From the sequence record MZ779063.1: a DNA stretch of 64,000 nucleotides; one strand, given 5' to 3'. This DNA is from Staphylococcus phage vB_SauM-UFV_DC4. Shown piece after piece: positions 16,296-39,010 of the stretch. Position numbers and translations under genes: made by a program. Position 1 is the stretch's first letter; every line of letters starts with the position of its first letter. The notes beneath the pieces were generated by a model. The model made no database searches. It saw nothing but the letters and a program-made list of their open reading frames with translations, and had not been told where the DNA came from.

Positions 16296-18230
16296 ATGTC
16301 TAATCAAGATAATAAATATGAACGTAAAAGAGCTATAACAGGATATTTAGAAAATTTAATCAAATTAATTAAAATAAGAAAACCTGATATTGATAATGAA
16401 AAGTTAATTAATACTTGTAGAGAGTATATTAAAAAACATGTAGATCCAGCTTTAATAGAAATATCTGGACAAAAAATGAATGTGGATACAACTTTAAGAC
16501 AAATTATAGATAATAATTTAATTGTAACTGGTTCTGGTTCTATTTATCAGCCTCAATCACAAAGAAAAAATTTAAATGCAGACATGTTAAAAGACTTTAT
16601 AGATTCTCGTAAAGTAGCTAAACATAATATGTTTATATATAAAGGTAAAGATGATGTTTTACATGATAAATATATGAACGAACAAAAAACAATTAAGATC
16701 TTGGCTAACAGTTATTACGGTGCTATGATTCAAAAGAATAGTACATTCTATGATGCTAATTCAGGTCCAGCAACTACATATAGTGGTGTTGATATTGTAA
16801 CTACTTCAGCAATAGCTTTAGAAAGATTTATAGGTGGAAAAATATTCTTTATGAAAATTGATGAAATATATCATTATATATTAAGAATAATCAATGAAGA
16901 ATATAAAGATCATGATATTAAAATAAAAACAATTCCAACTGATATGGAAATTTTAGAAGGTTTAGTTTCTAATGTTGAAGAATCTTTTAGCGAAGAAGAA
17001 TATCTTAAATTAGAAGAAGTATTTAGTAAATTAAGTCAAGAAGATAAAAATAAGGTATATTTCAAAAATAACTTATTTGGTTTAATTGATCATACTGATA
17101 TATTTGAGAATAAAATTAGTAAAATGACTGGTAGAGAAGATTTCTTAGATCCGAACGAACCACCTGAAGATATGATTCCATTATTAGATGAATTATTTGA
17201 AATATTAAAAGATTGGGTTATATACAACTATCAAGATTATAATAGAATGTATAGAATGAATTACAAGAAACGTAGAAGTGTTCTCACAATTGACACAGAT
17301 TCAAATTTCGTTCACTTAGATCCATTATACGAAAAAATGAAATCATTAAAACCTGAAGATTTTCCTTTAGCAGAAAATGGTTTAGAAGATAAATTAGAAG
17401 AACGTGTAGGTAATATATCTATTATTAACTATCAAATAACTAAATTATTAGAATTATCTTACTATGGATTCTGTAAAGATGTAGGATTAGAAGAAGAACA
17501 TTTAGGTTTAATATCAATGAAAAATGAATTTTTACTTGATAAACAATTAACAACAGATAAAAAGAAAACTTATGCATCATCAGTAATTCAACAAGAAGGT
17601 AATTTAATTCAACCTCCAGATTTAGATGTTAAAGGTATGGCTATTAGAAAAGTTAACACTAATAAACGTATTAGAGAATTATTTACTGAAATATTACAAA
17701 AAGATATTTTAGAAAATAAAACTGGTGTAGATCGTATTAAGATAATACGTAAATTTAAAGATATTGAAGAAATGATTAAGAAATCATTAGATAATGGAGA
17801 AATTGAATTCTTAAAACCGTTTAAAGCTAATAATGCTGAAGTTTATAAAGATCCTTATTCTCAAATGGCTTATAGAGCTGCTTTAGCATGGAATATAATG
17901 TTCCCAGAAAAGGAAATAGCACTACCTGCTAAGATATTAGCAGTTAAATTAAATATTAGTACATTTGGAGATATTAAGAATAAGATAACTGATGAAAATA
18001 CTTTAAATAGATTTAGAGAAGTATTTAAGAATGAAAGTTTAGTTAAAAATGGTTTAAATGTAATTGCAGTTGAAGGTAATACAATTCCTGAAGAGTTTAG
18101 ACCTTTTATTGACTATGATAGTATGATTGAAGATCATATTAAACCAGGTAAAGATATTATTGAATCTATAGGAGTTAGAGTATTGGAATCTTCAAATAGC
18201 TCATTTGTATCTAATATGATTAAATTCTAA
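16296..18230 (+). CDS. family-B DNA polymerase, C-terminal part (palm/thumb)
   Basis: motif B KILANSYYG (nt 16695-16721); motif C TIDTDSNF (nt 17288-17302); lacks the exonuclease motifs and motif A. Confidence 0.7.
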   Translation: MSNQDNKYERKRAITGYLENLIKLIKIRKPDIDNEKLINTCREYIKKHVDPALIEISGQKMNVDTTLRQIIDNNLIVTGSGSIYQPQSQRKNLNADMLKDFIDSRKVAKHNMFIYKGKDDVLHDKYMNEQKTIKILANSYYGAMIQKNSTFYDANSGPATTYSGVDIVTTSAIALERFIGGKIFFMKIDEIYHYILRIINEEYKDHDIKIKTIPTDMEILEGLVSNVEESFSEEEYLKLEEVFSKLSQEDKNKVYFKNNLFGLIDHTDIFENKISKMTGREDFLDPNEPPEDMIPLLDELFEILKDWVIYNYQDYNRMYRMNYKKRRSVLTIDTDSNFVHLDPLYEKMKSLKPEDFPLAENGLEDKLEERVGNISIINYQITKLLELSYYGFCKDVGLEEEHLGLISMKNEFLLDKQLTTDKKKTYASSVIQQEGNLIQPPDLDVKGMAIRKVNTNKRIRELFTEILQKDILENKTGVDRIKIIRKFKDIEEMIKKSLDNGEIEFLKPFKANNAEVYKDPYSQMAYRAALAWNIMFPEKEIALPAKILAVKLNISTFGDIKNKITDENTLNRFREVFKNESLVKNGLNVIAVEGNTIPEEFRPFIDYDSMIEDHIKPGKDIIESIGVRVLESSNSSFVSNMIKF

Positions 18231-18234
18231 ATAA

Positions 18235-18831
18235 TTGAATGAGGTATTTATTATGGAAAAATACTATAAATTTAATTTATTTGAGTGCATACTAAAAAAT
18301 ATTGGTATGCACTCAGATGAATATGAAAATTTGATAAGTAATATAAATAAAAATTTTACATCTTTATATTTTTATGACTATGAGATTAATAATAGTGATA
18401 TAGATAAATTGATATATGATAACATTCAAAAACAATTAATTGATGATAGTTATTTTTTATTTGAAATCAATAATAAAGAAGAAAGACTATTAGTTGATTT
18501 TGAAAATAACCTTTTATATGATAAATATAATGAGAAAATAGGAATGGTTTCTTTAAATAGAATTACTTCTTCTAGAGTAAATTTATTTTCAGATTTTGAG
18601 AATAAATATAGAGATTTAATATTTATGGAAAAAGAAGATATAAAATATGAAAATTTAATTGATATGGGATTTAATATTGTTACTACTTTTGAAATTTCTA
18701 CTGTATGTAAAAATAAAATAAATAATTTTAGTTACTTTGGTTTTGATATTAAAGATAATAAAAATAAGCTATTAATTGAATGTGATGAAAAAGAATTCAA
18801 AATTAATAAAGTTAAGAATAATTTTATATAA
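18235..18831 (+). CDS. hypothetical protein (weak C-tail ...KVKNNFI)
   Basis: 198-aa ORF. Confidence 0.45.
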   Translation: MNEVFIMEKYYKFNLFECILKNIGMHSDEYENLISNINKNFTSLYFYDYEINNSDIDKLIYDNIQKQLIDDSYFLFEINNKEERLLVDFENNLLYDKYNEKIGMVSLNRITSSRVNLFSDFENKYRDLIFMEKEDIKYENLIDMGFNIVTTFEISTVCKNKINNFSYFGFDIKDNKNKLLIECDEKEFKINKVKNNFI

Positions 18832-18889
18832 TTAGAAAAGTTAAAAGATAAATTTATTAATGATTATGAATAAGGAGACTTTGAATTTT

Positions 18890-19698: not shown

Positions 19699-21210
19699 AT
19701 GAAAATAGATATGATCAACGTTGATCAAATTATTACAGCCTATGAAGCTAAAGAAGTTACCAATCCTATTTTCTTTGATTCAGGAACTTTACCTAAAGAA
19801 GACGGTTTATTCTCATATGAAATATTTGGTTTAATAGGTACTGATGAAAGAAAGAATAATGTGGGTTGGATTAATTTAGGTGGTAAATACTTAAATCCTG
19901 TAGCTTATAAAGCTATGAAAGAATTAGATAAGAATATCGATTTATGTATTCAAGGATCTGATTACTTTAAAATTGAAAAAGGACAATTAGTTCCAGATGA
20001 AAATGGTGAAACTGGATTAAATTTCCTATACGATAATTATGAAAATCTTAAATTTAGAAAAAATGATTCTCGTATCCGAAATGAAAAAATTGATATGCTT
20101 AAAAACACTCCTAAAGATAGAATATTCACAGATAAATGGTTAGTTATTCCTGCTTTCTATCGTGACTTTAACCCTAATGAAACTTCAGGAGAAATTCAAG
20201 ATACTGAAGAAATAAATGATATGTATGCGAGTATTTTAAGATCTGTAGATTCAATTAGTTTTAACTCATTTGATTTTGTAGCTAATACGACTAAATATAA
20301 TATTCAAAATAAATTATTTGAAATATACGTTAAATTAACTTCAGGTGAACTATCAGGTAAAACTGGTATGATGCAAAGAAATATTTTAGGTAAGACAGTA
20401 GATAATAGTACTCGTTCAGTTATTTCATCACCTAAAATCAATTCAAATAAATGGAATGAAATGCAAATTGAATTCGGTCAATTAGGTGTTCCATTAACTC
20501 AATTAGTAACATTGTTCTTACCTTTCTTTAGTAAATATATTATAGACTTTATTGAAATTCATAAAGATGCTTTCCAAACTGCTACTGGAACTGATGAAAA
20601 GGAATTAACATTAGAAGAAGTATATGAACAATTTGATGATAAATCTATTAAGAATATGTTAGAATACTTTATTAAAGACCCTAATGAAAGATTTAGTCCT
20701 ATATATGTAAATGATAGACAAGGTAAACGTCATAAAGTTAAATTATTTGAAAATACTTTAGGTAGAACTTTTACTGTAATTGATTTACTTTATATAGCTG
20801 CTACAGAAATATGTGAAGATAAGTATGTAGTTTATTCAAGATATCCTATTGAAAATTTCTTGAATGTGGCTCCTGCTAAAATTAAAATACTAACTACAGT
20901 TGATACAATTCCAGAAATTACTTTAGATGATATTGTACTTAAAGATTATCCTAAAGTTGTTCATGAATATCCTGTTGATGAAGATGTATTTATAGATACT
21001 GCTATTATACACAACAGTTATGCCGGAGCACTTGGTGCAGATTTTGACGGTGATATGATCTCTATTAGATCTTTATGGACAGTTGAAGCTAATAAAGAAG
21101 CTAATAAACTTCTTAATAAGAAAACTAACTATCTAAACTACACTGGTAATTCAGTACGTAATTTGGGTAACGAATCGGTACAAGCTTTATATTCATTAAC
21201 TAAAGAATAA
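19699..21210 (+). CDS. RNA polymerase beta-prime subunit, N-terminal-half homolog
   Basis: EDGLFSYEIFG matches the beta-prime DGLFCxxIFGP region; GADFDGDM catalytic Mg motif (nt 21040-21054); no Zn-finger cysteines. Confidence 0.7.
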   Translation: MKIDMINVDQIITAYEAKEVTNPIFFDSGTLPKEDGLFSYEIFGLIGTDERKNNVGWINLGGKYLNPVAYKAMKELDKNIDLCIQGSDYFKIEKGQLVPDENGETGLNFLYDNYENLKFRKNDSRIRNEKIDMLKNTPKDRIFTDKWLVIPAFYRDFNPNETSGEIQDTEEINDMYASILRSVDSISFNSFDFVANTTKYNIQNKLFEIYVKLTSGELSGKTGMMQRNILGKTVDNSTRSVISSPKINSNKWNEMQIEFGQLGVPLTQLVTLFLPFFSKYIIDFIEIHKDAFQTATGTDEKELTLEEVYEQFDDKSIKNMLEYFIKDPNERFSPIYVNDRQGKRHKVKLFENTLGRTFTVIDLLYIAATEICEDKYVVYSRYPIENFLNVAPAKIKILTTVDTIPEITLDDIVLKDYPKVVHEYPVDEDVFIDTAIIHNSYAGALGADFDGDMISIRSLWTVEANKEANKLLNKKTNYLNYTGNSVRNLGNESVQALYSLTKE

Positions 21211-21814: not shown

Positions 21815-22297
21815 ATGATATATTACAAAAATAAAGTAAATGGTGAAATATACGAAGTTAATGATATTCATAGAAAAGATGATGCTTTTTATTATGTGTT
21901 TGGTAATGAATTTAAAAAAGAAAGAATAGGATTATATGAATCAGTGGGTAAAAAAATTGATTTATTTGATAAAGATAAAGGACATAAAGAATTAAACTTC
22001 CAATTAAATTATGACTCATCTAGATTATTTTTAGTTACACATATGAAATATGATAATAATAATCCTTTTGCACCTAAAGCAGTAGATTTAAAGAATCAAA
22101 ATTTTGTCGCATCCGATTCTTCAGAAGATCTTTACTATATATTATATAAAAGAATGTGTAATGCAATAGATATACCTTTATTAAATTATAATGTATTATT
22201 AAAAGAATTTAATTTTGATAATGAAGATATATTTAAAATAATATCAGAAGATTGTAAAGAAGTAAAAGATTTTAAAATTAGAAATCTTTTTAAATAA
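21815..22297 (+). CDS. C-tail family protein (tail KEVKDFKIRNLFK); paralog of 23025-23516
   Basis: N-terminus MIYYKNKVNGEIYEVNDIHRKDDAFYYVF is shared with 23025-23516. Confidence 0.55.
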   Translation: MIYYKNKVNGEIYEVNDIHRKDDAFYYVFGNEFKKERIGLYESVGKKIDLFDKDKGHKELNFQLNYDSSRLFLVTHMKYDNNNPFAPKAVDLKNQNFVASDSSEDLYYILYKRMCNAIDIPLLNYNVLLKEFNFDNEDIFKIISEDCKEVKDFKIRNLFK

Positions 22298-22312
22298 AAG
22301 GAGAAATTTTAA

Positions 22313-23014
22313 ATGGAAAATATTAAATTGTATAAAAATCTAGAAAATGGTGATAAATTTACTTTATCTAAAGATGAAATTAATAATGGTAGATTTCTTT
22401 ATAAAGTCATGAAACAAATAAAAAGTAGTTTTTACCCATATTATAATTATGAAGACCAACCCATTACAACCAATGGAAACTCTTATTTAATTAATAAACA
22501 ACTGAATTTTCATTTTTATACACATTCTGATATTATTATAAATTTTAAAAATTTAATTGGAATAGATGAAGATATAATAATTAAGAGTAATGAAAATAAA
22601 GAAAGAAATATTTCATCTTCAATTGTTTGTTTCTCTGATTCCAATACAGATAATGATGGAATTTATGAAAATATATTTCAAATTGTTTTAAATACAAAAA
22701 AGACTAAGAAAATAATTCGTATGCTAGATAAATATAAAAGTGATAAATATAAAATATCTTCCTGTACAATGGATAAAAATGAAGTACATTTTAAAGTTAG
22801 TTTCAAACAAGATTATTTGTCTGATAAGAATAATGACGTTTATGATTCTCTAGATGAATTAATATATTATATATTAAAAGATCTTAGAATTAAGATCGAC
22901 AATTCGTATATGTATTTTATGGATTATCTAAGATGGAATTTGGAATTTATTGCTGAAGAAATTACTGATGAGGAAGAAATTAAAAATTACTTAATTAAAG
23001 AAAAATTTAAATAA
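22313..23014 (+). CDS. C-tail family protein (tail ITDEEEIKNYLIKEKFK)
   Basis: conserved tail. Confidence 0.55.
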   Translation: MENIKLYKNLENGDKFTLSKDEINNGRFLYKVMKQIKSSFYPYYNYEDQPITTNGNSYLINKQLNFHFYTHSDIIINFKNLIGIDEDIIIKSNENKERNISSSIVCFSDSNTDNDGIYENIFQIVLNTKKTKKIIRMLDKYKSDKYKISSCTMDKNEVHFKVSFKQDYLSDKNNDVYDSLDELIYYILKDLRIKIDNSYMYFMDYLRWNLEFIAEEITDEEEIKNYLIKEKFK

Positions 23015-23024
23015 GGAAGTGTAA

Positions 23025-23516
23025 ATGGATATGATATATTATAAAAATAAAGTAAATGGTGAAATATATGAAGTTAATAATATTCATAGAAAAGATGATG
23101 CATTTTATTATGTATTCAATAATGAATTTAAAAAAGAGAATTCGTCTTTTTATAAATCTTATGGTAAAAATATTGATTTATATGATGAAGACGTAGGAAG
23201 TATAAAATTGGAGTTTTTCTTAATTTATGATTCTATTAATCTTAATTTAACTACACACTTTTCTTGGGATTTTAATAATATTCCTTTTATACCTAAAATT
23301 ATAGAATTAACAAACCAAAATCTTGTCATATCAGACTCTTCAATTGATCTTTATTATTTATTCTATAAAAGAATATGTGATGTGATAGATATAAATATGG
23401 CATATTATAATATTCCATTAGAAAAATTTAATTTTGATAATGGAGATATATTTGAAATAATTTCAGAAGATTGTAAAGAAGTAAAAGATCTTAAAGTTAG
23501 AAATCATTTTAGATAA
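23025..23516 (+). CDS. C-tail family protein (tail KEVKDLKVRNHFR)
   Basis: paralog of 21815-22297. Confidence 0.55.
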   Translation: MDMIYYKNKVNGEIYEVNNIHRKDDAFYYVFNNEFKKENSSFYKSYGKNIDLYDEDVGSIKLEFFLIYDSINLNLTTHFSWDFNNIPFIPKIIELTNQNLVISDSSIDLYYLFYKRICDVIDINMAYYNIPLEKFNFDNGDIFEIISEDCKEVKDLKVRNHFR

Positions 23517-23521
23517 GGAGA

Positions 23522-23707
23522 TTGATAAATATGAGAAAAGAAATTAGAAAAAATGAAAGTAAACAATTGACTTTACAAGAAAAATGGGAAATTGATGCAG
23601 AATTATACAGAGAGAAAAATAAAGACAAGAAAAAAATAAAAGGGCCAATTATAGGAAAGAAAGTTTCTAAAGAAGAAATGGAAAGAATCTTAAAAGGAGA
23701 AGAATAA
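23522..23707 (+). CDS. small basic protein
   Basis: 61-aa K/E-rich ORF, no tail motif. Confidence 0.35.
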   Translation: MINMRKEIRKNESKQLTLQEKWEIDAELYREKNKDKKKIKGPIIGKKVSKEEMERILKGEE

Positions 23708-23708
23708 A

Positions 23709-24362
23709 ATGTTTAATCACAATATCTTACTATATAAACCTATTAGCATTGATTATAATGATTTTATTGAGTTAAACAAAGAAAAATATAAAAATGATAG
23801 AGAATATATTAAAATGATAAATGTATTTAACTTAATGGAACTGTTAAAAATAGACTCTTTTAAAGATAAAACTTTCTTTGAAACTGAATGTAAATTAAAA
23901 TTAAGAGGTTATGATGAATATAAAAATATAAAAGTGGTTTACAATCAATCATTAGACAGTGATCCAATATTCTCTAATTTAAAAAACTTTAATGCAGAAT
24001 TAGATATTATAAGTAAAGAAAGAGATAATACTTATATGACTGAAGAATTATTATATGAATACAATATGATGAAAATGAGCACACATATAAATGATAAAGC
24101 TAACACTATTACAATTAAAATAAAAAATTTCATTAATTCAAATAAAGAAAATTTTAATAACGATTTTGAATTCCTTATTAAAGAATTTGAAAATAATTTA
24201 TTAAAGAATTTAACAGACCTCCATAAATATGAAGACTTACAACTTCTAATTAATAGTGAATATCACAGTTTAAAAGATATTAGTGTATATAATGAAAAAA
24301 TATTTAGACCTGCTACTGATAAAGAGTTTAAGAATTATTTAGTTAAAAAAGGATTTAGATGA
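23709..24362 (+). CDS. C-tail family protein (tail KEFKNYLVKKGFR)
   Basis: conserved tail. Confidence 0.55.
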   Translation: MFNHNILLYKPISIDYNDFIELNKEKYKNDREYIKMINVFNLMELLKIDSFKDKTFFETECKLKLRGYDEYKNIKVVYNQSLDSDPIFSNLKNFNAELDIISKERDNTYMTEELLYEYNMMKMSTHINDKANTITIKIKNFINSNKENFNNDFEFLIKEFENNLLKNLTDLHKYEDLQLLINSEYHSLKDISVYNEKIFRPATDKEFKNYLVKKGFR

Positions 24363-24373
24363 AAATATGTATT

Positions 24374-24423
24374 AAATATATATTATAAAAATGAGATAAT
24401 GAATTAATATAATTCATTATCTC
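24374..24423 (+). promoter_or_regulatory. promoter-like box AAATATATATTATAAAAATG plus 5'-leader hairpin GAGATAATGAATT...AATTCATTATCTC
   Basis: perfect 13-bp inverted repeat begins at the G that ends the box. Confidence 0.5.
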
Positions 24424-24455
24424 TATATTAATTTAATTAGGAGAGTGAAAAAGAT

Positions 24456-25064
24456 ATGGATTTAAAAGAGAATAAATTTTATTATAATAAAGATATTAAT
24501 GAGCTTTTTATAATTGGTAAGGATGAAAGTGATATTAACGATAAGATAAATAAATTCTATTATAAAAAATTATTAGAAAAAAATTTAGATTATCATGGTT
24601 TAATTAATAATCTTTATTATAATAGAAATATAAATTTTGATTTAATGGATGATGACGATATATATTTTAGTAATATGTATAATGGAATTAGAGAATATAT
24701 TAAGGTGAGTTATGTAGAATTTTCATGTACAAATTTTGAAGATAATGAAGTAATATTACAGTTAGATACTTTTATTGATAAAAGCAATGATAAAAATCTT
24801 TTAGAAGTTCATAAAGATTCGCATGGTGTTACCATAACAATGGTAAAAGGTTTTTATGAAAAAGATCTTATAAATTATAATGAATACAAAAATATTTTAG
24901 ACAAATTATCTGATCTGTTTGACACAATGCTTAAAGAAGAAAATGATGGAAATATTAAAATCTTTATAAATGATATTGATATATTTGAACCTTATGCATA
25001 TTTTAGAGAGTTAGAAGACGAAAGAGGAATTAAAAATATTTTGGTTAAGAAAAATTTTATATAA
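24456..25064 (+). CDS. C-tail family protein (tail ERGIKNILVKKNFI)
   Basis: conserved tail. Confidence 0.55.
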   Translation: MDLKENKFYYNKDINELFIIGKDESDINDKINKFYYKKLLEKNLDYHGLINNLYYNRNINFDLMDDDDIYFSNMYNGIREYIKVSYVEFSCTNFEDNEVILQLDTFIDKSNDKNLLEVHKDSHGVTITMVKGFYEKDLINYNEYKNILDKLSDLFDTMLKEENDGNIKIFINDIDIFEPYAYFRELEDERGIKNILVKKNFI

Positions 25065-25078
25065 AGGAGATAGATATA

Positions 25079-25705
25079 ATGGATGTAAATGAATATATAA
25101 ATAATCATGATTTTTATAGAGTTGGGAATGACGGTCAAGTATTTGTATTTAATAAAGATATATCAAAAGATGAATTAAATTCTAAAATATTTTCTAAATT
25201 ATTTGCATGCGAAAATATAGGAATTTTATTGTCTGAATATGGTTATTATGTAATAGATGAATATAATGTATTCTTAAGAAATAATGATAAAATATTATTA
25301 GTTGAAAATATGACTATTGATCTAAGTTTAATTAAAGATGATCTAATTGAATTAAATTTTGCATTAATTATTAAATCTAGTCTTCCTTCAAAAATTGGTC
25401 CTTTTGAAAAAGATAAAGGTAATCATGATGATTTTTATTATTATGATACTATTATTCAAATAGAAAATAAAGATAACTTTCAACATGAATTAATTTCCCA
25501 TATAACAAATCATTTTAATAAAATGAGTGATGTTGATTTAATGCTTTTAACTGCTAAAAATGAAATTAAATTTAATAAAGATTATAGTATTAATAAAAAA
25601 TGTATTGATTTTAAATGTAATTTTAATGAAATTTATAAAATACTTAATAAATTAGAAGATGAAAAAGAAATTAAGAAATATCTAACTAAAGAAAATTTTA
25701 AATAA
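25079..25705 (+). CDS. C-tail family protein (tail EDEKEIKKYLTKENFK)
   Basis: conserved tail. Confidence 0.55.
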   Translation: MDVNEYINNHDFYRVGNDGQVFVFNKDISKDELNSKIFSKLFACENIGILLSEYGYYVIDEYNVFLRNNDKILLVENMTIDLSLIKDDLIELNFALIIKSSLPSKIGPFEKDKGNHDDFYYYDTIIQIENKDNFQHELISHITNHFNKMSDVDLMLLTAKNEIKFNKDYSINKKCIDFKCNFNEIYKILNKLEDEKEIKKYLTKENFK

Positions 25706-25718
25706 GGATAGAATAAAT

Positions 25719-26282: not shown

Positions 26283-26299
26283 AATAAGGAGGATTAAAT

Positions 26300-28442: not shown

Positions 28443-28568
28443 ATGCTAAAAAGATTATATGAATTATTAACTAGAAAAAGATTTGAAAAGAAACTATATG
28501 AATTTAAATTTAGTTATCAAGACCATGAGCATCTTAATGAAGTTCATGAATTTAGTAAAAACAATTAA
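28443..28568 (+). CDS. possible 41-aa small ORF
   Basis: GGAGATG RBS 8 nt upstream of the ATG; short, so uncertain. Confidence 0.3.
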   Translation: MLKRLYELLTRKRFEKKLYEFKFSYQDHEHLNEVHEFSKNN

Positions 28569-28571
28569 GGA

Positions 28572-28982: not shown

Positions 28983-28985
28983 AAT

Positions 28986-29037
28986 AAATATATATTATAA
29001 AAATGTTATCCCAATACTATTAAATTAGTATTGGGAT
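28986..29037 (+). promoter_or_regulatory. promoter-like box AAATATATATTATAAAAATG plus conserved hairpin ATCCCAATACTATT...AGTATTGGGAT (copy 2)
   Basis: box followed 3 nt later by the CCCAATAC hairpin; upstream of array C. Confidence 0.5.
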
Positions 29038-29062
29038 TATTATAATAAAAGGAGTTAAATAA

Positions 29063-29839
29063 ATGGAGAAAATTAACAAATACTACATTAGTAAATCGAA
29101 AGATGAATTTATAGAATTAACTTTCAATGAAAATGAAACACTCTATTTTGACTTTAAGTGGAAAGTTTTAAGTGAGCTATTCACTACAATGCAAATAAAT
29201 TATAATAAGAGATTTCTTATATCTCATGAAGAACATGATGACAATGGTTTAGTTGGTCTTAGAATAAATTTCAATGCTTTTCCCACAGTTAAATACAAAT
29301 ATAAAGGTAAGAAAAATAAAATGGAACTTCTTATATACGCTATAATACGCTTTAGTCTAAATGAAGAAGACGATAATTATATTAAGTTTAAAGCTGTTCC
29401 TTTATATAATAATAGTGAAATAGGGAAAAGATTATTTAGTAAAAGATCTGGTATATTTGATGATAATGGTGAACTAGATTTACCGCATGACTTTAATGAA
29501 GAAGTTATGATTCGCTTTTTAAAATATTTTAAAAGCCATATACAAAAAGGAAAAAGACCTTTAGAACTCAAGGACGATTTACACAAGATGTTTACTACTA
29601 CAAATAAATTAATTTTTGAATTACTAGATCAGATACAAGATCATTCAGATATTGAATTTCTTATTGCACCCGATTGGGATTTTAGTGGTAAAGAAATGGA
29701 AAAAGAAAAAGGTTTTAGTTTTGAAAAAGAATATGATAAGTATATCAGTTTAAATGATTTCGATGTTGATGCATATTTTAGAGAAATAACTGATGAGAAA
29801 GAGATTAAAAAATTTAAAGTTAAGAAAGGATTTTCCTAA
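29063..29839 (+). CDS. C-tail family protein (tail ITDEKEIKKFKVKKGFS); RDHxDIEF subfamily
   Basis: tail plus the shared internal motif LLDQIQDHSDIEFLIAPD. Confidence 0.55.
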   Translation: MEKINKYYISKSKDEFIELTFNENETLYFDFKWKVLSELFTTMQINYNKRFLISHEEHDDNGLVGLRINFNAFPTVKYKYKGKKNKMELLIYAIIRFSLNEEDDNYIKFKAVPLYNNSEIGKRLFSKRSGIFDDNGELDLPHDFNEEVMIRFLKYFKSHIQKGKRPLELKDDLHKMFTTTNKLIFELLDQIQDHSDIEFLIAPDWDFSGKEMEKEKGFSFEKEYDKYISLNDFDVDAYFREITDEKEIKKFKVKKGFS

Positions 29840-29840
29840 T

Positions 29841-30659
29841 ATGAAAAATAATACAAAATATTTTATAGATAAAAAAAGAGATGAATTAATTGAAATTGAT
29901 AAAGAATATCTTAATCGATATGAGTATATTGCACACGTATTAACTGTCATTGATATGAATAAGCTTTTATATATTGAAGATCATGCTAGATCCTTTATAA
30001 ATGGTATTAATATTGAAGAAAATGATGTGGGAAATGGATTGACTTTTAATAATATAGAAATTCATAATAATATCCATTTCAAAAATATAAATAGTAAAAA
30101 TAATGCGTATAAAAATTTTAATACCGATTTTTATATAAACTTCTTTATTGATAGAATGGATAAAGTTAAAACTCAGAATTTTAAGTTAAAATTTAATTTT
30201 TATAATTCAATATATAAAGAATATTTTAATAAAATTACCAATAATTTATTAAATGAAGATAATTTAGTCAATGAAGGAGTAAATAAAGAAATAAGATCTC
30301 TTATGAATTTTGAATTATTTAAAAAAGAGTTATATAATACTAAATACAATAATAGTGAATATTTAAATCTTTTTGAAAATTCATCATATATGAAGGACAA
30401 TGTTATTGGATTTATAAATAAATTTGAAGGATTATTTTCTAGTGTAATATACCAAAATAACCTTAGTGTATTAATGACTCTTTATGAAATAAAATACATG
30501 TATGAAGATGACATAGATTTTTATATTAATTTTTATAATGAAAATTATGGTTTAGTTAATATATTAGAATTAATCGAAAGTGATGAAAATGATTTATTTA
30601 AAGAAATTAAAACAGAAAAAGAAATGAAAGCGTTTAAAGTTAGAAAAGGATTCAAATAA
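29841..30659 (+). CDS. C-tail family protein (tail KTEKEMKAFKVRKGFK)
   Basis: ATG at 29841 sits right after the upstream stop, so it is preferred over the overlapping track start at 29793. Confidence 0.5.
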   Translation: MKNNTKYFIDKKRDELIEIDKEYLNRYEYIAHVLTVIDMNKLLYIEDHARSFINGINIEENDVGNGLTFNNIEIHNNIHFKNINSKNNAYKNFNTDFYINFFIDRMDKVKTQNFKLKFNFYNSIYKEYFNKITNNLLNEDNLVNEGVNKEIRSLMNFELFKKELYNTKYNNSEYLNLFENSSYMKDNVIGFINKFEGLFSSVIYQNNLSVLMTLYEIKYMYEDDIDFYINFYNENYGLVNILELIESDENDLFKEIKTEKEMKAFKVRKGFK

Positions 30660-30680
30660 TATAAAGAAAGGATTTTTGTA

Positions 30681-31421
30681 ATGGAATATAATAATTACTA
30701 TAGATATAAATTAGATGGAAAAATACTTCACTTTGATATGGATAGAACTGATTTACGTAGAGATAAATTGGCTGAAATATTTACTAAAGTTAAGATGGAA
30801 TATATTTATAAAGATAAAAAAATGATTAAAAAAGCAAGAAACTTTATTTACCGATCTAATCTTTCTTTAGAGTATTCTCATTTTAAAGATAAAGTATTTG
30901 TAATCAAACAAATTTCTAAAATGCTAAGTAAAAACAATGTAAGGGATTTATTAATTTACGATACGGATCTTAGTTTAGAATTTAATTCTATTTTAGACGG
31001 TGGTATATTTAAAAAAGATTTTCCAGAAGGATCCTTTTATGAAAAAATAGAAAGTAATATGAATAGAAAATATTTAATTTTAAGTGATAATATAAGACAC
31101 ACTAGTGAAAGTTTTGTTGATTTATATGATAAAGATTATATTTTAAATTTTGAAGAAGTAGAATTGCTAGTCAAAGAATTTAATAAAACTCTTTTAAATT
31201 ATCTTATGGATTTAATGAGTTATGGAAATCTAGAATTAAAAGTTAGAAAATCGGAGTTAGCATATTTTATGACAGGAATATATACAAAAATGGAAGAAAA
31301 CGAAGATAAGTTATTCCCTATATTTGATTATAAATTTTTACTTAATGAATCTGGATTATTTGAAGAGATTACAGATGAGAAAGTTATTAAAGAATATTTA
31401 GTGAAAAATAATTTTAAATAA
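30681..31421 (+). CDS. C-tail family protein (tail ITDEKVIKEYLVKNNFK)
   Basis: conserved tail. Confidence 0.55.
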   Translation: MEYNNYYRYKLDGKILHFDMDRTDLRRDKLAEIFTKVKMEYIYKDKKMIKKARNFIYRSNLSLEYSHFKDKVFVIKQISKMLSKNNVRDLLIYDTDLSLEFNSILDGGIFKKDFPEGSFYEKIESNMNRKYLILSDNIRHTSESFVDLYDKDYILNFEEVELLVKEFNKTLLNYLMDLMSYGNLELKVRKSELAYFMTGIYTKMEENEDKLFPIFDYKFLLNESGLFEEITDEKVIKEYLVKNNFK

Positions 31422-31437
31422 AAAGGAGATCAATGTA

Positions 31438-32220
31438 ATGAGTATAAATAAAAGTCATAAAAAATATTTTTTGAGTAAAATGACAGATGATTTATTTGAA
31501 GTTACTAACTTATACAGATATAATATAAATGAAGATTATTTATATCTACCTCAATTACTTTCTAATTTACAAGTAAAAAGTAATGAAGAAATAAATATAC
31601 TTTCTGAAGAGATTGTTGGTAAAGATGATAATGGAGAGAATTTATGGTCAGGAACTATATCAGCTGGATATATTTTTCCAGTTATCAAATATAATGTTAA
31701 TAATAAAAAGACAACGAATATACTTATTATTGATTTTGATATTATTTTCAACGAATCAATAGAAAATGAAAACTATTTAAAAGTTAGAATTGAAAATCCA
31801 TACTCTTCAGGTATAAATTCAATAATTTTTAATAGCGTTATTGGCAATATATTAGATGAATCCAATTCTTTAAAAGTGCCTTTTAGATTTCATATAAATA
31901 GCATGGAAGATTTAATATCAGATTTTAATAATGGTACAGAAAATAATTTTAGAAATAATAAAGATTTATACCAAATATTAGTTGAAGTAAATAGTTCTAT
32001 ATTGGAACTTTTATCACAAATTAGAGATCATTTTGATATAGAATTCTTTGTATCAGATTCTTGTTTCTCGCATATACCGGAGAATGATAAAAGAGATAAT
32101 GATGATATAGATGATAGATACTATAATTTATTTGACGAATATAAAATATCTGGAGTATTTGAAGAGATTATGGATGAAAAGATTATTAAAAAATATTTAG
32201 TGAAAAATAATTTTAAATAG
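31438..32220 (+). CDS. C-tail family protein (tail IMDEKIIKKYLVKNNFK); RDHFDIEFF subfamily
   Basis: tail plus LLSQIRDHFDIEFFVSDS. Confidence 0.55.
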   Translation: MSINKSHKKYFLSKMTDDLFEVTNLYRYNINEDYLYLPQLLSNLQVKSNEEINILSEEIVGKDDNGENLWSGTISAGYIFPVIKYNVNNKKTTNILIIDFDIIFNESIENENYLKVRIENPYSSGINSIIFNSVIGNILDESNSLKVPFRFHINSMEDLISDFNNGTENNFRNNKDLYQILVEVNSSILELLSQIRDHFDIEFFVSDSCFSHIPENDKRDNDDIDDRYYNLFDEYKISGVFEEIMDEKIIKKYLVKNNFK

Positions 32221-32235
32221 AAGGAGATCAATATA

Positions 32236-33030
32236 ATGGGTGTAATTAAAAGTGATAAAAAATATTTCTTATGTAAAATAAATGATGAATTATTTGAAGT
32301 TGATAAAAATCATAGAGATTCATTTTTATATGACTATTTACCTTTAATAATAGCTGAAAAAATAATTAATTCGACTGAAAAAGATTCATATGAAACTAGA
32401 GCAATGGATGTTTATTATAAAAAAGAAGATAATGTAATTGAAGGTAATTTAAAATTTTTAGCAAGATGTTTACTTCCTGTCCTGTATAATTTCAATAATA
32501 AAAATTCATTTAAAACCGTTATGACTCTCGCAAATTTTAAATTTAAAAGGGATGCTAATAAATCTACTTTTAGTATAGATAAAAATAGTGTTAATGATAA
32601 AATACTATTTCAAATGAGACCTTTAGGAAATGAAATTGATGATATTTTATTTAATAGTATTATAAGTGACCTTTTGAACGAAGATGACGAAATAGAAATG
32701 AAACAAATGTTATTAGTTGGTAATTTTGAAAAATTATTAAACGAAATTGATAGTCAAAATATAAAACATCATGATGATTTTAAAATTTTAATCAAAGATA
32801 TATTCAATATTTATCTTAATTTATTAAAATCCTTAAGACATCATCTTAATATTGAATTTTTCTTTTCTGAATCTTCTTTTCTAGACACGTTAAATGTTTA
32901 TAATTTTGATATTATTAATAAAGATAGTTATAAAATAAATATTTTTGAAGATGATTTAGATGGAATATTTGAAGAAATTACCGATGAAAAATTTGTTAGA
33001 GAATATTTAGTGAAAAATAATTTTAAATAA
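32236..33030 (+). CDS. C-tail family protein (tail ITDEKFVREYLVKNNFK); same subfamily
   Basis: tail plus LKSLRHHLNIEFFFSES; 3' end and downstream RBS nearly identical in DNA to 31421 and 32220. Confidence 0.55.
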   Translation: MGVIKSDKKYFLCKINDELFEVDKNHRDSFLYDYLPLIIAEKIINSTEKDSYETRAMDVYYKKEDNVIEGNLKFLARCLLPVLYNFNNKNSFKTVMTLANFKFKRDANKSTFSIDKNSVNDKILFQMRPLGNEIDDILFNSIISDLLNEDDEIEMKQMLLVGNFEKLLNEIDSQNIKHHDDFKILIKDIFNIYLNLLKSLRHHLNIEFFFSESSFLDTLNVYNFDIINKDSYKINIFEDDLDGIFEEITDEKFVREYLVKNNFK

Positions 33031-33043
33031 AGGAGTTAATATA

Positions 33044-33880
33044 ATGAGTGATGTATATTATGAATATAAATTGAGAAATAAAATATTTAAGTTTAATGAT
33101 GAAATTGAAGATTTAAGCGATACCGGTATTAAGAACTTTATAACATATGAAAATAATATTTTAAGCAATTTATTGACAAATATATTAATTGATCATACTG
33201 TCTATGGTTTTATACCGAATATATCCTATGAAGAAAATAAAAATGATGGTGTTGATAAAGAATATGTAAAAAAGGTAAATTTAAGTATTTTAAAACATTT
33301 ACCCTTAGTATCATACAGTGTAGGTAATTCAAATATATTAAATGATTTTTCTTTAAATGTCAATTCTGTTGTTGATATTTATAAAAAAGGAAATTTCGAA
33401 GATGAAGAAGGCAATAAAATGATTATACCTAAAGAAAATTTTAAATTGGAGACAAATATAAATATTGATAATTTAGGTGGAAAAATCGATCATGAATTAT
33501 TTAATAAAATATGTGGAGATATTTTTGATCAAGACGAGAATTTTTTATTTTATAAAATGTATGATCATATATTAGAGGAAAATTCTATGTCACTATATGA
33601 GAATATAGGAAATATAAATAATAAATTGGTTTATGAAATTATACTCCGTTTAAATAATAATATTTTATCATTATTTGAAAAAATCAGAAGTCATTTAGAC
33701 GTGAGATTTTATTTAAGAGATAAAGACTTTTATCTTTTCAGTAATGGAGAAATAGACAAAGATTCATTAAGTGACGAATATATTGAAATATCTGAATTTT
33801 TAGGAAAATCATCTTTATTTAAAAAGATTACAGATGAGAAGATTATTAAAAATTATGAAATAAAAGAAAACTTCAAATAA
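33044..33880 (+). CDS. C-tail family protein (tail ITDEKIIKNYEIKENFK); same subfamily
   Basis: tail plus LFEKIRSHLDVRFYLRDKDF. Confidence 0.55.
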   Translation: MSDVYYEYKLRNKIFKFNDEIEDLSDTGIKNFITYENNILSNLLTNILIDHTVYGFIPNISYEENKNDGVDKEYVKKVNLSILKHLPLVSYSVGNSNILNDFSLNVNSVVDIYKKGNFEDEEGNKMIIPKENFKLETNINIDNLGGKIDHELFNKICGDIFDQDENFLFYKMYDHILEENSMSLYENIGNINNKLVYEIILRLNNNILSLFEKIRSHLDVRFYLRDKDFYLFSNGEIDKDSLSDEYIEISEFLGKSSLFKKITDEKIIKNYEIKENFK

Positions 33881-33936: not shown

Positions 33937-36672
33937 ATGAAGATTAAAAGATTAAAGTTAAAGAATTTTATCGGTATTTATGCTGGTATGGGATTAAAAG
34001 AAGTTGAAATTGATTTTAGTAAAAGTAAAAATAATATGATTATGCTTCTTGGAGATAACGCTTCAGGTAAGACGACAGTTATGTCTAATCTTAATCCATA
34101 TAGAGAAACTAATGATCAACGTAAAACTATAGTATTAGAAGATGAAAAAGGTATAAAAGAGATTGATTATATTAAGGGTAATGATGTTTATGAAATTAAA
34201 CATCATTATGGTAAAAACAGTTCTCAAAATAAATCATTCATTAAGAAAAATGGTGAAGAACTTAATGAAAATGGTGGTATTAAATTATTCAATGAAATAG
34301 TAGATAAAGAATTAGGTGTATCTAAAGAATACTTTACTGTAGGTCGTTTAGGTGATAACGTATCAAACTTCATTGACTATACTACAGGTGATCGTAAATC
34401 ATATATCAATAAATTTGTACCTAATATTGATAGATACTTAGAAGCTTATAAAGTAGCTAATGAGAAATTAAAAATTATTACTAAAGATTTAAAATCACTT
34501 AGATTTGATTTAGACAAATATAAAGAATTTGATGAAATCAAAAAAGAAAAAGAGAATTTAGAAACTTTAATTGATCAATTACAAAATGAACTTGATGAAG
34601 CTAATAAAGATAAAACAACTCATGAAACTAAAATGAATTCTATCATGGAAGATAAGTACAAAGAGATTCATCCAACTGAATATAAAAATCAATTAATTAA
34701 TGAAATTAATGAACTTAATCAAGAATTAGAAAAAGAAAGAAAGTTAAAAGAAGATAATGAGAATTTAAATAAATATACTATTGAATCCGCTAATGAGAAA
34801 AAAGATAAAATAGATACTATATTAAATAATACTAATAATGAGTTGACTTCTGTTGAGAAAGATAAAGAGAATAATCAAGATAAATTAGATGATTTAATCA
34901 GTAGAAAATCTAAAATAGAATCTCGTATGAATGCTATCAAATTTAATGAAGATTATGATGCTTCTGATGAAATTGATTCAATTCTTGAAGGATATAAAGA
35001 AGATTTAGAAGGTATTAAAGATGATGTAGATATTTCTAGAGGGTCTTTTGTAAGTGAATTCGGTTTACAAATTAAAGATAATATTAAAGAGGATTCATTA
35101 AGATTATATGTAAATGATTTAATTTCTAAGGTAGATAATTTTAAAGAATTTATTAATGATAATGAATTTAAATATGGTTCTATTCGTGGAGATTTTGAAA
35201 GTGAAATTAAAGATAATAATGAAAAAATTTCTATGAACCAGAATGAATTTAATGAAATTAATACTAAGCTTAATCAAATTAAAGGTAAATCAGACTTATT
35301 AAAAATATTAGATCAAAAAGATCATGAACACTATAATGAATGTGTATTTGTTCCTTTAGTAGCTGACTTTAAAGATAATGAATTTGATTCAATTTCTGAA
35401 TTAGAAAATAAAGGTAATCAACTTTATAAAGATAATCAAGAATTAGAAAAAGATAATAGATTATTATCTAATCATATTGATTTATTACGTAAATTTAATG
35501 ACATACTTAATAGCAGAAATGGTTTAATTGAATATATTGGTTTTGAAATGATTGATATTGATAGTATTGAAGAAATATTTACTAATGGTAATACATTCTC
35601 TAGTGAACTAAATAGACTTAATTCATTAATTGAAAAGACAAATGAAATTCGTACTAATGAAACTAATAGAGATAAATTGACTATTGAATTAGAGAGAAAA
35701 GAAAATGCTCTTAAAGAAGATTATTCTAATAAGAAAATATTAGATCAATATAAAGAAGATAAAGAAGATTTAGTTAAACAAATTGAAGAAATTAAAAATA
35801 AAAATAATGAAATTTCTGAGAATCTTAATTATCTTAATGGTCGTAAAGAAAAAGCAATTACTAACTTAAATATTATTAATGAATTTATTAATCTAACAGA
35901 GAGATCTGAAGAAATTAAATTAAAAATGAAAGATAAAAATGATATAGTTGATGACATTGATAAGGATCTTTCAAAATTAAGTAATTTATATGAACTTAAT
36001 CAAAAAGCAGACAATAAGATTCAATCTATTAAAGATAATTTAACTATGAAGAAAAATGATTTAGAATCTACTAAAGAAAAATACTTTGCAGTTAATTCTA
36101 TTATTACTAAGATTGATGAAATTGAATCAGTGTTATGGAAATATAATATGGTGGTAGACTCATTAAATCCTAAGAAAGACTCTATACCATTAATATTCAT
36201 TACTAATTATCTTAAAGATATTGCAGTAAGTACTAATGAATTACTTTCAGTTGCTTATAATAATTCATTTAAAATTGACTTTGACTTAACAGATAAAGAT
36301 TTCTTTATTAATGTGTATAAAGGTAATGGAACTGAACTTAAGGATATTAAAGAAGCTTCTCAAGGAGAAACAGCTTTAACTAATATTAGTTTATCATTAT
36401 CATTATTAAACAAAGTATCTCAAGATTATAATATTCTATACTTAGATGAAATGGATTCAACATTAGATTCTAATAATAGAAGAAGATTTGTTGATGTGAT
36501 TGACAGACAAATTGAATTAATGGGTCTAGAGCAAGTATTCTTAATTAGTCATAATGATGAATTTTATAGTGCTAATATTGACTTAATTTTACTTAAAGGA
36601 TATGAAAGTAAAATTGACATTAATAATGAAGAAATGATGCAAGGTAAAAATGTATTATTTAAAGTAAACTAA
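33937..36672 (+). CDS. SbcC/Rad50-like SMC-type ATPase
   Basis: N-terminal IKRLKLKNFIGI...LLGDNASGKTT (Walker A); long central coiled coil; C-terminal signature/Walker B region ...ASQGETALTNISLSLSL... LYLDEMDSTLD. Confidence 0.7.
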   Translation: MKIKRLKLKNFIGIYAGMGLKEVEIDFSKSKNNMIMLLGDNASGKTTVMSNLNPYRETNDQRKTIVLEDEKGIKEIDYIKGNDVYEIKHHYGKNSSQNKSFIKKNGEELNENGGIKLFNEIVDKELGVSKEYFTVGRLGDNVSNFIDYTTGDRKSYINKFVPNIDRYLEAYKVANEKLKIITKDLKSLRFDLDKYKEFDEIKKEKENLETLIDQLQNELDEANKDKTTHETKMNSIMEDKYKEIHPTEYKNQLINEINELNQELEKERKLKEDNENLNKYTIESANEKKDKIDTILNNTNNELTSVEKDKENNQDKLDDLISRKSKIESRMNAIKFNEDYDASDEIDSILEGYKEDLEGIKDDVDISRGSFVSEFGLQIKDNIKEDSLRLYVNDLISKVDNFKEFINDNEFKYGSIRGDFESEIKDNNEKISMNQNEFNEINTKLNQIKGKSDLLKILDQKDHEHYNECVFVPLVADFKDNEFDSISELENKGNQLYKDNQELEKDNRLLSNHIDLLRKFNDILNSRNGLIEYIGFEMIDIDSIEEIFTNGNTFSSELNRLNSLIEKTNEIRTNETNRDKLTIELERKENALKEDYSNKKILDQYKEDKEDLVKQIEEIKNKNNEISENLNYLNGRKEKAITNLNIINEFINLTERSEEIKLKMKDKNDIVDDIDKDLSKLSNLYELNQKADNKIQSIKDNLTMKKNDLESTKEKYFAVNSIITKIDEIESVLWKYNMVVDSLNPKKDSIPLIFITNYLKDIAVSTNELLSVAYNNSFKIDFDLTDKDFFINVYKGNGTELKDIKEASQGETALTNISLSLSLLNKVSQDYNILYLDEMDSTLDSNNRRRFVDVIDRQIELMGLEQVFLISHNDEFYSANIDLILLKGYESKIDINNEEMMQGKNVLFKVN

Positions 36673-37165: not shown

Positions 37166-37174
37166 TTTAAATAT

Positions 37175-37216
37175 TGCCAAACATTCTTTAAATAGAGTGT
37201 TTGGCATTTTATATTT
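37175..37216 (+). terminator. rho-independent terminator
   Basis: TGCCAAACA...TGTTTGGCA hairpin followed by TTTTATATTTT. Confidence 0.6.
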
Positions 37217-37288
37217 TAATTTTTTATGAAATCTAAGTAACGATTAAATTATCAAAGTAGCAATTGAATTGAGGAGTGTTCAAAGATA

Positions 37289-39010
37289 ATGGGTAGATTT
37301 ATTAAATCAACATATTTAAATAAAAAAGAGACACATTCAGGAAAAGAAAAAGTAGTAATGGTAGTTAAAGAAGAAGACGGTAATAAAAAACATATGGAAA
37401 TAACTGATCCAATGATGCATTATTATGTAACTAAAGATGAACATTGGTTACCACCTAATAAAATTGTAGGTTCTATTGAAAAAGATAAAGTAAGAACTGT
37501 TACTTGTAAGCATAAAGATATTATCAAATCAGTAGTTAAAGAAGCTGGTAATGCTCAAGATAAAGCAGAATATGATAGAATTATGAAATCAGGTAATTGG
37601 CAAGAATATAGAAAATTAAAAGATTTTCATTTATTAAATAATGCTCATGGATCTGATATTAATATAGAAGATTATAATATTAATGAGTATATTAAAAAGA
37701 ATTTAGATAGTAAAGTCGGTATAGATATATGTCTATTCGATATTGAGGTTGATGGTTCTCAAGTAACAGGCTTCCCAGATCCTGAAAAAGCTGAAGCAGA
37801 GATAAATATTATAACTGTAGTGGATTGGAGTAAGAAAAAAGTATTAACATTCGCTCTTAAATATGACACTGATACTTATAGAGAAACTATGAAAGATCAA
37901 GATAAGTTAATTAAAGACTTAAATGAAATCTATAATAATGAAAATAGTGAAATTGGTAAAGATTTAGGTTTAGAATTTGAAATATATGAATTAGATACAG
38001 AAATGCAAGTAATTAAATCTTTCTTATACTATATTAATGAAATTAGTAAACCTGATATATGTACAGCATGGAATCTAGATTATGACTTCCCTGCAATATT
38101 TGAACGTATTAGAGCTAATGGAGAAGATCCTGCAGATTATTTCTGTTCTAAAGAATTTGAAGATAAAAAAGCATATTATAAATTAGATAAAAATGCTACT
38201 GATATGGCTAATAGATCTTCTACATTTGAGACTAATTCTTATACTAACTGGATTGACCAATTAGCTTTATATGCAAATATTAATAAACCTAATGGTGCTT
38301 TGGAATCAGTTAAGTTAAATGATATTGGAGAAAAAGAAGCGAGAGTTACTAAAGATGTTTATGAAGGTTCTATCTCTGATTTACATTTTAGAGATTATTA
38401 CACATTTATACTTTATAATATTAAAGATACTGTATTAGCTGCATTAATTGAACATAACACTAATATGTTTGATTTATTATTCTCTATTGTAGATATGACT
38501 AGAACAAGACCTAGTAAAGCACTTAAGAAAACTATTTGTTTAAGAAATCGTAGTTCAGTATTCTTTGAAAATCAAGGATATGTATTAAGTAATAACCACT
38601 CAAAATTATTATCAGATCCGAATGCAGATAAAATTCGTGGTGGATTTGTAGCAGATATGATGTTAATTGAACGTAATGGTGATACATTAGTTAAAGGTAG
38701 AGATATTAGATCTAATAGATTATTTAGTAATGTTTGTGACTTTGACTTGAGTGCTCTATACCCATCTATTATTAGAGCATATAATATAACACCTGAAGGA
38801 CATGTGGGTAAAATGAATATTCTTGATAAAGATAGAATAACAGTGCCTAAGTATGAGGAAGATAAAGATAACTATGATTTTAATACTGAATTCGTAAGTA
38901 AGTTTAACAGTCAAGATAGTGTTGCTTTTGCTCAAGAATTTCATGGTTTACCTCCTCTTATTAAAGCATCTGATGACATTATTAAAGAATTAGAGGAGGA
39001 AATTGGTTAA
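37289..39010 (+). CDS. family-B DNA polymerase, N-terminal part (3'-5' exonuclease plus motif A)
   Basis: Exo I LFDIEVDG; Exo II WNLDYDFPAIFER; Exo III YNIKDTVL; pol motif A DFDLSALYPSII (nt 38738-38773); ORF ends about 80 aa later, before motif B. Confidence 0.75.
   Translation: MGRFIKSTYLNKKETHSGKEKVVMVVKEEDGNKKHMEITDPMMHYYVTKDEHWLPPNKIVGSIEKDKVRTVTCKHKDIIKSVVKEAGNAQDKAEYDRIMKSGNWQEYRKLKDFHLLNNAHGSDINIEDYNINEYIKKNLDSKVGIDICLFDIEVDGSQVTGFPDPEKAEAEINIITVVDWSKKKVLTFALKYDTDTYRETMKDQDKLIKDLNEIYNNENSEIGKDLGLEFEIYELDTEMQVIKSFLYYINEISKPDICTAWNLDYDFPAIFERIRANGEDPADYFCSKEFEDKKAYYKLDKNATDMANRSSTFETNSYTNWIDQLALYANINKPNGALESVKLNDIGEKEARVTKDVYEGSISDLHFRDYYTFILYNIKDTVLAALIEHNTNMFDLLFSIVDMTRTRPSKALKKTICLRNRSSVFFENQGYVLSNNHSKLLSDPNADKIRGGFVADMMLIERNGDTLVKGRDIRSNRLFSNVCDFDLSALYPSIIRAYNITPEGHVGKMNILDKDRITVPKYEEDKDNYDFNTEFVSKFNSQDSVAFAQEFHGLPPLIKASDDIIKELEEEIG

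Follow-up and report, generated by a model that had tools for sequence, protein, structure and literature searches.

The 64,000-nucleotide (nt) stretch of the genome of Staphylococcus phage vB_SauM-UFV_DC4 analyzed here (sequence record MZ779063.1, in the following called the window) encodes a family B DNA polymerase (PolB) in two open reading frames (ORFs), 16296-18230 and 37289-39010. These two ORFs very probably encode the subunits of the only replicative DNA polymerase of the phage, a split family B enzyme of the phiKZ/AR9 type that forms a non-covalent 1:1 heterodimer. Following the names of the PhiKZ subunits, the products are called DNAP-C and DNAP-N, respectively. At the protein level both ORFs are 99.8-100% identical to their counterparts in Staphylococcus phage S6 (LC680885.1, 267 kb), a jumbo myovirus which is reported to carry uracil in place of thymine in its DNA and which is kin to the Bacillus phages AR9 and PBS1. 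The name S6 is therefore used below for this phage. A polymerase encoded by two genes is already known and is a hallmark of phiKZ-related jumbo phages.

Sequence and predicted structure of the two halves

Both ORFs share one strand and are separated by 19,058 bp, the C-terminal half being upstream, and about 24 ORFs of at least 80 amino acids (aa) are found between them. This inverted order was pointed out in a preliminary description of the window, made from the letters alone, which also placed the three exonuclease motifs and polymerase motif A in the downstream ORF and motifs B and C in the upstream ORF. All of these motifs could be located (Table 1). The stop codon of DNAP-N follows 80 aa after motif A, DNAP-C has in addition the KKxY motif and the thumb, and neither ORF carries the motifs of the other. 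The break is thus placed between motifs A and B, and together the two ORFs make up one family B polymerase.

DNAP-N comprises an N-terminal domain, the 3'-5' exonuclease, the first strand of the palm, which carries motif A, and a helical tail. It matches residues ~106-344 and the motif A region of RB69 and T4 gp43 (E ~1e-10) as well as PHROG DNA polymerase families (4e-63). D486 in motif A is the counterpart of RB69 D411 and PhiKZ DNAP-N D562. When 69 N-type sequences were aligned, D151, E153, N262, D266, Y376, D380, D484, D486, Y491 and P492 were invariant. All 69 proteins have a tail beyond motif A that is 59-154 aa long (median 70), and motif B or C was found in none of them. In the AlphaFold2 model of DNAP-N (mean predicted local distance difference test score, pLDDT, of 87.5) residues 1-440 are confident. 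The orphan palm piece at ~441-530 has a pLDDT mostly below 75, which drops to ~44 around motif A, and the tail helices 531-572 are confident again. The low score at motif A is expected because the strand is modeled without its sheet. The 80-aa tail is predicted to be the first segment of a palm-insertion domain located between the subunits.

DNAP-C contains the palm-insertion head, the fingers, the remainder of the palm and the thumb. It matches the Pfam families PF20286, 'Divergent Family B DNA polymerase' (4.9e-53), and PF00136 (7.7e-11). An unrelated region of roughly 130 aa had at first been assigned to the start of this ORF, but it really covers only ~65 aa, as the PF00136 alignment begins at residue 66 and the fingers helices span residues 93-145 in the model. 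This head is specific to the family and is predicted to form the second segment of the palm-insertion domain, with the insert between motifs B and C predicted to form the third. The AlphaFold2 model of DNAP-C (mean pLDDT 82) contains the head helices, the fingers, a confident helical insert at 189-323, the motif C hairpin at 330-339 and the thumb. Across 19 C-type sequences K134, N138, Y141, G142, D333, T334, D335, K423, K424 and Y426 are invariant, and the distance from motif B to motif C is 182-236 aa; in RB69 this distance is roughly 50 aa. Motif A is present in none of the 19 proteins. The tail, the head and the B-to-C insert are conserved and are therefore parts of the enzyme and not the debris of a broken gene.

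Each half has a PHROG family of its own (phrog_3011 with 576 positions and phrog_2927 with 710 positions), and therefore the half-proteins are established families in their own right. For both models RB69 and T4 gp43 rank first in Foldseek, as reported for PhiKZ, and the PDB matches of both halves are confined to RB69, T4 and archaeal PolB. In a large protein collection the 19 C-type relatives have lengths of 357-717 aa and the best 120 N-type relatives of 330-710 aa, and a fused form of ~1200 aa was not found among the 19 C-type and 120 N-type matches listed.

To look for further copies, tblastn searches were carried out with both halves and with PhiKZ gp50 and gp82 against the pieces of the S6 record and the window, which jointly cover the whole genome. 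A single locus was obtained for each half, and no second polB-like locus was detected up to E = 10. The preliminary description had also considered that motifs B and C might continue in another frame after 39010. No such continuation was found there, and the next ORF (39010-39792) shows no Pfam or PHROG similarity to polymerases.

Table 1. Coordinates of the polymerase genes, their motifs and signals, and other features named in the text (positions in the window unless another record is given).
Feature	Position	Strand	Remark
DNAP-C subunit gene, 644 aa	16296..18230	+	homologue of PhiKZ gp50, AR9 gp152
Head, residues 1 to ~65, helices 5-28 and 34-48	16296..16490	+	corresponds to PhiKZ DNAP-C 1-98
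Motif B, KILANSYYG, residues 134-142, second fingers helix	16695..16721	+	
Helical insert of ~145 aa, residues ~182-328, from motif-B palm helix to motif C, pLDDT ~90	16839..17279	+	corresponds to PhiKZ DNAP-C 221-419
Motif C, TIDTDS, residues 331-336	17286..17303	+	D335 corresponds to PhiKZ DNAP-C D426
KKKTY (KKxY primer-terminus motif), residues 422-426	17559..17573	+	
Shine-Dalgarno AAGGAG, 14 nt before DNAP-C start codon	16276..16281	+	
16-bp hairpin, bidirectional terminator-like	15822..15856	.	between convergent genes upstream of DNAP-C
DNAP-N subunit gene, 573 aa	37289..39010	+	homologue of PhiKZ gp82, AR9 gp132
Exo I, FDIEV, residues 150-154 (D151, E153)	37736..37750	+	
Exo II, WNLDYDF, residues 261-267 (N262, D266)	38069..38089	+	
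Exo III, YNIKD, residues 376-380 (Y376, D380)	38414..38428	+	
Polymerase motif A, DFDLSALYPS, residues 484-493	38738..38767	+	
80-aa tail after motif A, helices 531-572	38768..39007	+	corresponds to PhiKZ DNAP-N 589-638
Shine-Dalgarno GAGGAG, 12 nt before DNAP-N start codon	37271..37276	+	
Terminator-like hairpin and T-run, 83 nt upstream of DNAP-N	37175..37206	+	
260-aa ORF, start codon overlapping DNAP-N stop (ATGA)	39010-39792	+	
Virion RNA polymerase beta-prime fragment	19699-21210		
SbcC-like ATPase	33937-36672		
Portal protein	39836-42298		
DnaB-like helicase candidate	45608-46630	+	tblastn E 1e-10 to PhiKZ gp75, annotated 'DNA helicase'
S6 RNase H (S6_1060), bare 203-aa domain, outside the window	LC680885.1 120847-121458		

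Proposed assembly of the two chains and alternative explanations

The best understood enzyme of this type is that of PhiKZ. Its gp82 (DNAP-N, 638 aa) and gp50 (DNAP-C, 731 aa) were purified as a stable 1:1 complex (Basu et al., bioRxiv preprint October 2026, PMC13648687). The complex was solved by cryo-electron microscopy (cryo-EM) at 2.1 A, and both polymerase and exonuclease activity are present (PMC13648687). The split lies inside a helical 'palm insertion' built from DNAP-N 589-638, DNAP-C 1-98 and DNAP-C 221-419, and the active site is shared, with D562 of motif A coming from DNAP-N and D426 of motif C from DNAP-C (PMC13648687). The polymerase-dead variant ΔPol carries, by design, the exchange D562A in DNAP-N, and with ΔPol and Δexo combined the primer was neither extended nor degraded (PMC13648687). 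For efficient synthesis the enzyme needs a third protein, Rhc, an RNase H fused to a clamp-like domain, which boosts synthesis (PMC13648687).

Besides T4 and RB69 gp43, both pieces could be aligned to the PhiKZ subunits, as the preliminary description had proposed to do. In BLASTP residues 67-181 and 395-641 of DNAP-C align to 93-222 and 474-730 of gp50 (E 1e-13). For DNAP-N the Exo II region aligns to 206-295 of gp82 (E 9e-7), and residues 463-513, which include motif A, align to 539-589 (E 3e-3). The pattern positions in both PhiKZ proteins agree with the published numbering (PMC13648687): in gp82 motif A was located at 560-568, followed by a 70-aa tail, and in gp50 motif B at 175 and the DTD of motif C at 424-426, compared with 134 and 333-335 in DNAP-C of S6. 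By position, residues 514-573 of DNAP-N and residues 1 to ~65 and ~182-328 of DNAP-C, all predicted to be helical, correspond in this order to the three palm-insertion segments of PhiKZ.

The likeness to PhiKZ therefore comprises the same two protein families, with Exo I-III and motif A in one chain and motifs B and C, KKxY and the thumb in the other. It is predicted to extend to a break within the palm insertion, with an N tail, a C head and a long helical B-to-C insert. In both phages the gene for DNAP-C lies upstream of that for DNAP-N on one strand, at 35 kb in PhiKZ and 19 kb in S6, and both belong to jumbo phages with split multisubunit RNA polymerases (RNAPs). In contrast to PhiKZ, the S6 subunits are smaller (573 and 644 aa versus 638 and 731 aa) and the B-to-C insert is ~50 aa shorter. 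A 'little finger' insert is reported only for a subset of Pseudomonas phages (PMC13648687), and the smaller DNAP-N of S6 would leave no obvious room for it. Further differences are that S6 lacks chimallin, has uracil-containing DNA and has an RNase H without a detectable Rhc clamp domain.

From these data the following mechanism can be proposed. The two genes would be transcribed and translated separately, and the chains would then join non-covalently in a 1:1 ratio, restoring the normal PolB architecture. The contribution of DNAP-N would be the N-terminal domain, the exonuclease for proofreading and the first palm strand, on which D486 of motif A lies. DNAP-C would supply the fingers with motif B, the motif C hairpin with D333 and D335, the KKxY motif and the thumb. 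With motif A in one chain and motif C in the other, the active site would therefore be composite and neither chain would polymerize alone. The helical palm-insertion domain, to which DNAP-N would contribute its 80-aa tail and DNAP-C its ~65-aa head and ~145-aa B-to-C insert, would hold the chains together.

Several points weigh against this interpretation. That the S6 chains bind each other as those of PhiKZ do is something we infer from the PhiKZ complex, and the structural work on PhiKZ is a preprint (PMC13648687). The identity to the PhiKZ subunits is low, ~23-26% over local stretches, and the equivalence of tail, head and insert is positional and not a residue-level alignment. Moreover, when hidden Markov models (HMMs) built from 57 diverse Rhc proteins were run with hmmsearch against the S6 ORFs of at least 60 aa, the clamp domain reached a best E of only 0.24, compared with 1.5e-25 for the RNase H part. 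Without a detectable Rhc clamp domain the S6 holoenzyme may differ from that of PhiKZ.

An older reading of phiKZ-like polymerases is that DNAP-C is the complete polymerase and DNAP-N a loosely bound proofreading exonuclease, like E. coli DnaQ, with a vestigial motif A. It is in line with an assignment for phage EL in which the polymerase ORF contains both catalytic aspartates (Kazlauskas and Venclovas, 2011, PMC3201878). However, as described above, a motif A-like sequence is absent from every C-type protein, and D484, D486, Y491 and P492 of motif A are kept in every N-type protein, which is not what a vestige would look like. In addition, the PhiKZ cryo-EM structure has D562 of motif A in DNAP-N, the very residue exchanged in ΔPol (PMC13648687). 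We consider this reading improbable.

The preliminary description had left the choice between assembly of the halves in trans and their joining at the RNA or protein level. Assembly in trans is supported by the stable, unspliced 1:1 complex of PhiKZ gp82 and gp50. Covalent joining after expression, through a split intein or through a bipartite group I intron that is trans-spliced at the RNA level, has some attraction, as group I introns, inteins and homing endonucleases abound in AR9-like phages. In PALS_2, Machias, PB50 and MarsHill, HNH or intron insertions break up these very polymerase genes, and in another jumbo phage, MIJ3, PolB has a split intein (PMC6892783). However, no Rfam family of any kind, group I introns included, matched the window at gathering thresholds. 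The start codon of the next ORF overlaps the stop codon of DNAP-N, so that a 5' intron half would not fit in there. Intein hallmarks are missing as well, as already noted in the preliminary description: on inspection of the intein blocks the DNAP-N tail, at 80 aa shorter than an N-intein of ~100 aa, has no Cys/Ser start and no TxxH, the DNAP-C head has no HN-C/S/T, and Pfam intein domains were not found. Furthermore, tail and head are conserved in the family, and the mature PhiKZ enzyme with its two chains contains both in ordered form (PMC13648687). Covalent joining is thus very improbable. Each gene has its own Shine-Dalgarno sequence and an upstream terminator-like hairpin, and the hairpin before DNAP-N indicates that a separate transcription unit starts with this gene. 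Together with the lack of introns and inteins and the unspliced PhiKZ structure, this leaves non-covalent assembly.

The probability is negligible that the ORFs are what is left of decaying pseudogenes, or arose as an artefact of assembly or frameshift, with replication by another polymerase: although both are labelled 'hypothetical protein' in the S6 GenBank record, they are long and intact with all catalytic residues kept, the same two-gene layout occurs in more than 15 independently sequenced phages, the S6 genome has no further polB-like sequence, and a 19 kb gap filled with so many ORFs is too large for a frameshift.

Distribution of the split and other divided enzymes

A novelty of the split, as implied by the preliminary description, is not supported. 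The split is ancient and common to AR9, PBS1, BpSp, phiR1-37, LPJP1 and PhiKZ. The same gene pair occurs in nine staphylococcal phages of the S6 type as well as in AR9, PBS1, Goe21, Internexus, BpSp, LPJP1 and phiR1-37. In AR9, PBS1 and BpSp the C-half is likewise upstream with respect to transcription, 9-17 kb from the N-half. The S6 proteins are direct orthologues of those of the AR9 type, with an identity of 35-39% to AR9 and 96-98% to MarsHill, and AR9 has the same gene order at a similar spacing (15 kb). In phiR1-37, unlike S6, the genes of the pair are oriented divergently, with only 2 kb between them.

Recognition of an exonuclease and a polymerase ORF dates from 2008-2011, that of the AR9 subunits from 2016-2017, and structure and biochemistry of the PhiKZ pair were added in 2026. 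The phiKZ-like divergent polymerase was identified with its exonuclease as a separate ORF (Kazlauskas and Venclovas, 2011, PMC3201878). The 'divergent family B' clade is typical of group 1 jumbo phages (Iyer et al., 2021, PMC7824862); in its members a long helical insert precedes the second palm strand, and the exonuclease has its gene elsewhere (PMC7824862). In AR9 both gp132 and gp152 belong to the 'continuously expressed' gene class, and gp132 was described with 'a partial catalytic domain' (PMC5312081). The orthologues in the records of MarsHill, Madawaska and Machias are already named 'DNA polymerase exonuclease subunit' and 'DNA polymerase catalytic subunit'.

Several AR9-type relatives carry HNH endonuclease or intron insertions in one or both polymerase genes, in contrast to the uninterrupted S6 copies. 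HNH homing endonuclease genes or predicted introns split the genes into two to three pieces in PALS_2, Machias, PB50, AH12 and LY01 (loci of interrupted relatives: MN091626.1 205359-208102; MW349128.1 128814-132338 and 108425-110694; OR770614.1). In MarsHill (L002:5062-7182) an in-frame extra piece of ~62 aa is annotated as an intron. Free of such insertions, the S6 genes lend themselves as references for exon boundaries.

Divided polymerases occur outside this group too. A split gp43 of some T4-related Aeromonas phages was reportedly described by Petrov, Ratnayaka and Karam in 2010, and a split PolB of Methanothermobacter thermautotrophicus by Kelman et al. in 1999; both are said to consist of two separately translated chains which assemble without splicing. 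These are independent and more recent fissions of canonical enzymes. Their genes follow the N-to-C order and lie side by side or near each other, and a palm-insertion domain like that predicted for S6 is not known from them. A further parallel is NrdA of phage Aeh1, an essential replication-related phage enzyme which was divided into two genes by a homing endonuclease insertion and is rejoined by protein-protein interaction (PMC3045599). It differs from S6 in being another enzyme with a recent split in which the mobile element is still there (PMC3045599), whereas none is found at the S6 break.

Genome setting, promoters and processivity

The window has a G+C content of 20-30%, and its genes lie almost all on one strand. 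Its bases 1-200 are identical to the S6 record LC680885.1 from 44,517. In this record the DNAP-C gene lies 6 nt further along than this offset predicts, and DNAP-N has a tblastn identity of 99.8%, not 100%. The window therefore differs from LC680885.1 by at least one small indel or substitution. PhiKZ-type multisubunit RNAP genes are present in the window, and other recognizable neighbors are listed in Table 1. The ORF 45608-46630, ~6.6 kb downstream of DNAP-N, may, judging from its sequence, encode the divergent DnaB-like replicative helicase with which this type of polymerase is associated in group 1 jumbo phages (PMC7824862).

Tandem arrays of small paralogous ORFs (160-290 aa) at 21815-33880 take up most of the region from one polymerase gene to the other, and such ORFs are also found at 14473-15817. 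BLASTP clustering gave one five-member family at 29063-33880 and several pairs, none of which is given a function in the MarsHill annotation. The motif TAAATATATATTAT occurs in seven exact copies in the window, all on the + strand (6017, 11790, 21290, 21718, 24376, 28988 and 48740), and each copy is followed by a G or A ~6 nt later. By chance 1.8 copies were expected, and seven were reached in no shuffle. These copies correspond to the published consensus of the AR9 early promoter, used by the virion RNAP, which is AAATATATATTAT-(6N)-G. Several TAAATATATATTAT copies lie just upstream of the paralog arrays, which suggests from the sequence that these are early genes. Directly upstream of the polymerase genes no TAAATATATATTAT-(6N)-G was found, the best match having 2 mismatches (at 16202), and the late motif AACA-(6N)-TA/G is absent upstream of either gene. 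Shared AR9-type promoters before both polymerase genes are thus not supported, for the early as well as for the late motif.

For chimallin, PhiKZ gp54 was used as tblastn query and gave no match in S6 at E <= 1, so S6 is not a chimallivirus. In agreement with this, the S6-like phage PALS_2, PBS1 and phiR1-37 have been listed as phages with multisubunit RNAPs but without chimallin (Prichard et al., 2023). Phages that form a nucleus are therefore not the only ones with a split polymerase.

S6_1060 is the only RNase H of S6, and it matches just positions 86-206 of the 496-position Rhc PHROG. The overlap of the start codon of ORF 39010-39792 with the DNAP-N stop codon suggests that this ORF is translationally coupled to DNAP-N. 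It is restricted to the clade, as an exhaustive HMMER search of 1.84 billion proteins gave 3 representative homologues. As a stand-alone Rhc-type clamp the ORF was rejected at the sequence level: Pfam and PHROG gave no match, the PDB profile search gave noise only (E >= 0.37), and hhalign against the Rhc clamp-domain alignment gave a probability of 0.1%. We regard it as rather unlikely that in AR9/S6-type phages, which build no nucleus and carry uracil in their DNA, the split polymerase works without Rhc and relies on a different processivity partner, in which case the split core would predate the phage nucleus. For such a partner ORF 39010-39792 is one candidate, although a weak lead.

For the annotation of S6-like phages these results mean that the 'hypothetical protein' pair of LC680885.1 can be given the names of subunits N and C of the DNA polymerase. 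The composite-active-site architecture, which was solved in a nucleus-forming phage, extends with intact catalytic residues to the AR9/S6 clade with its uracil-containing DNA and without chimallin. A recognizable Rhc clamp domain is missing in S6. As the architecture is shared with this clade, the split of the polymerase is not tied to the phage nucleus and is probably older than it.

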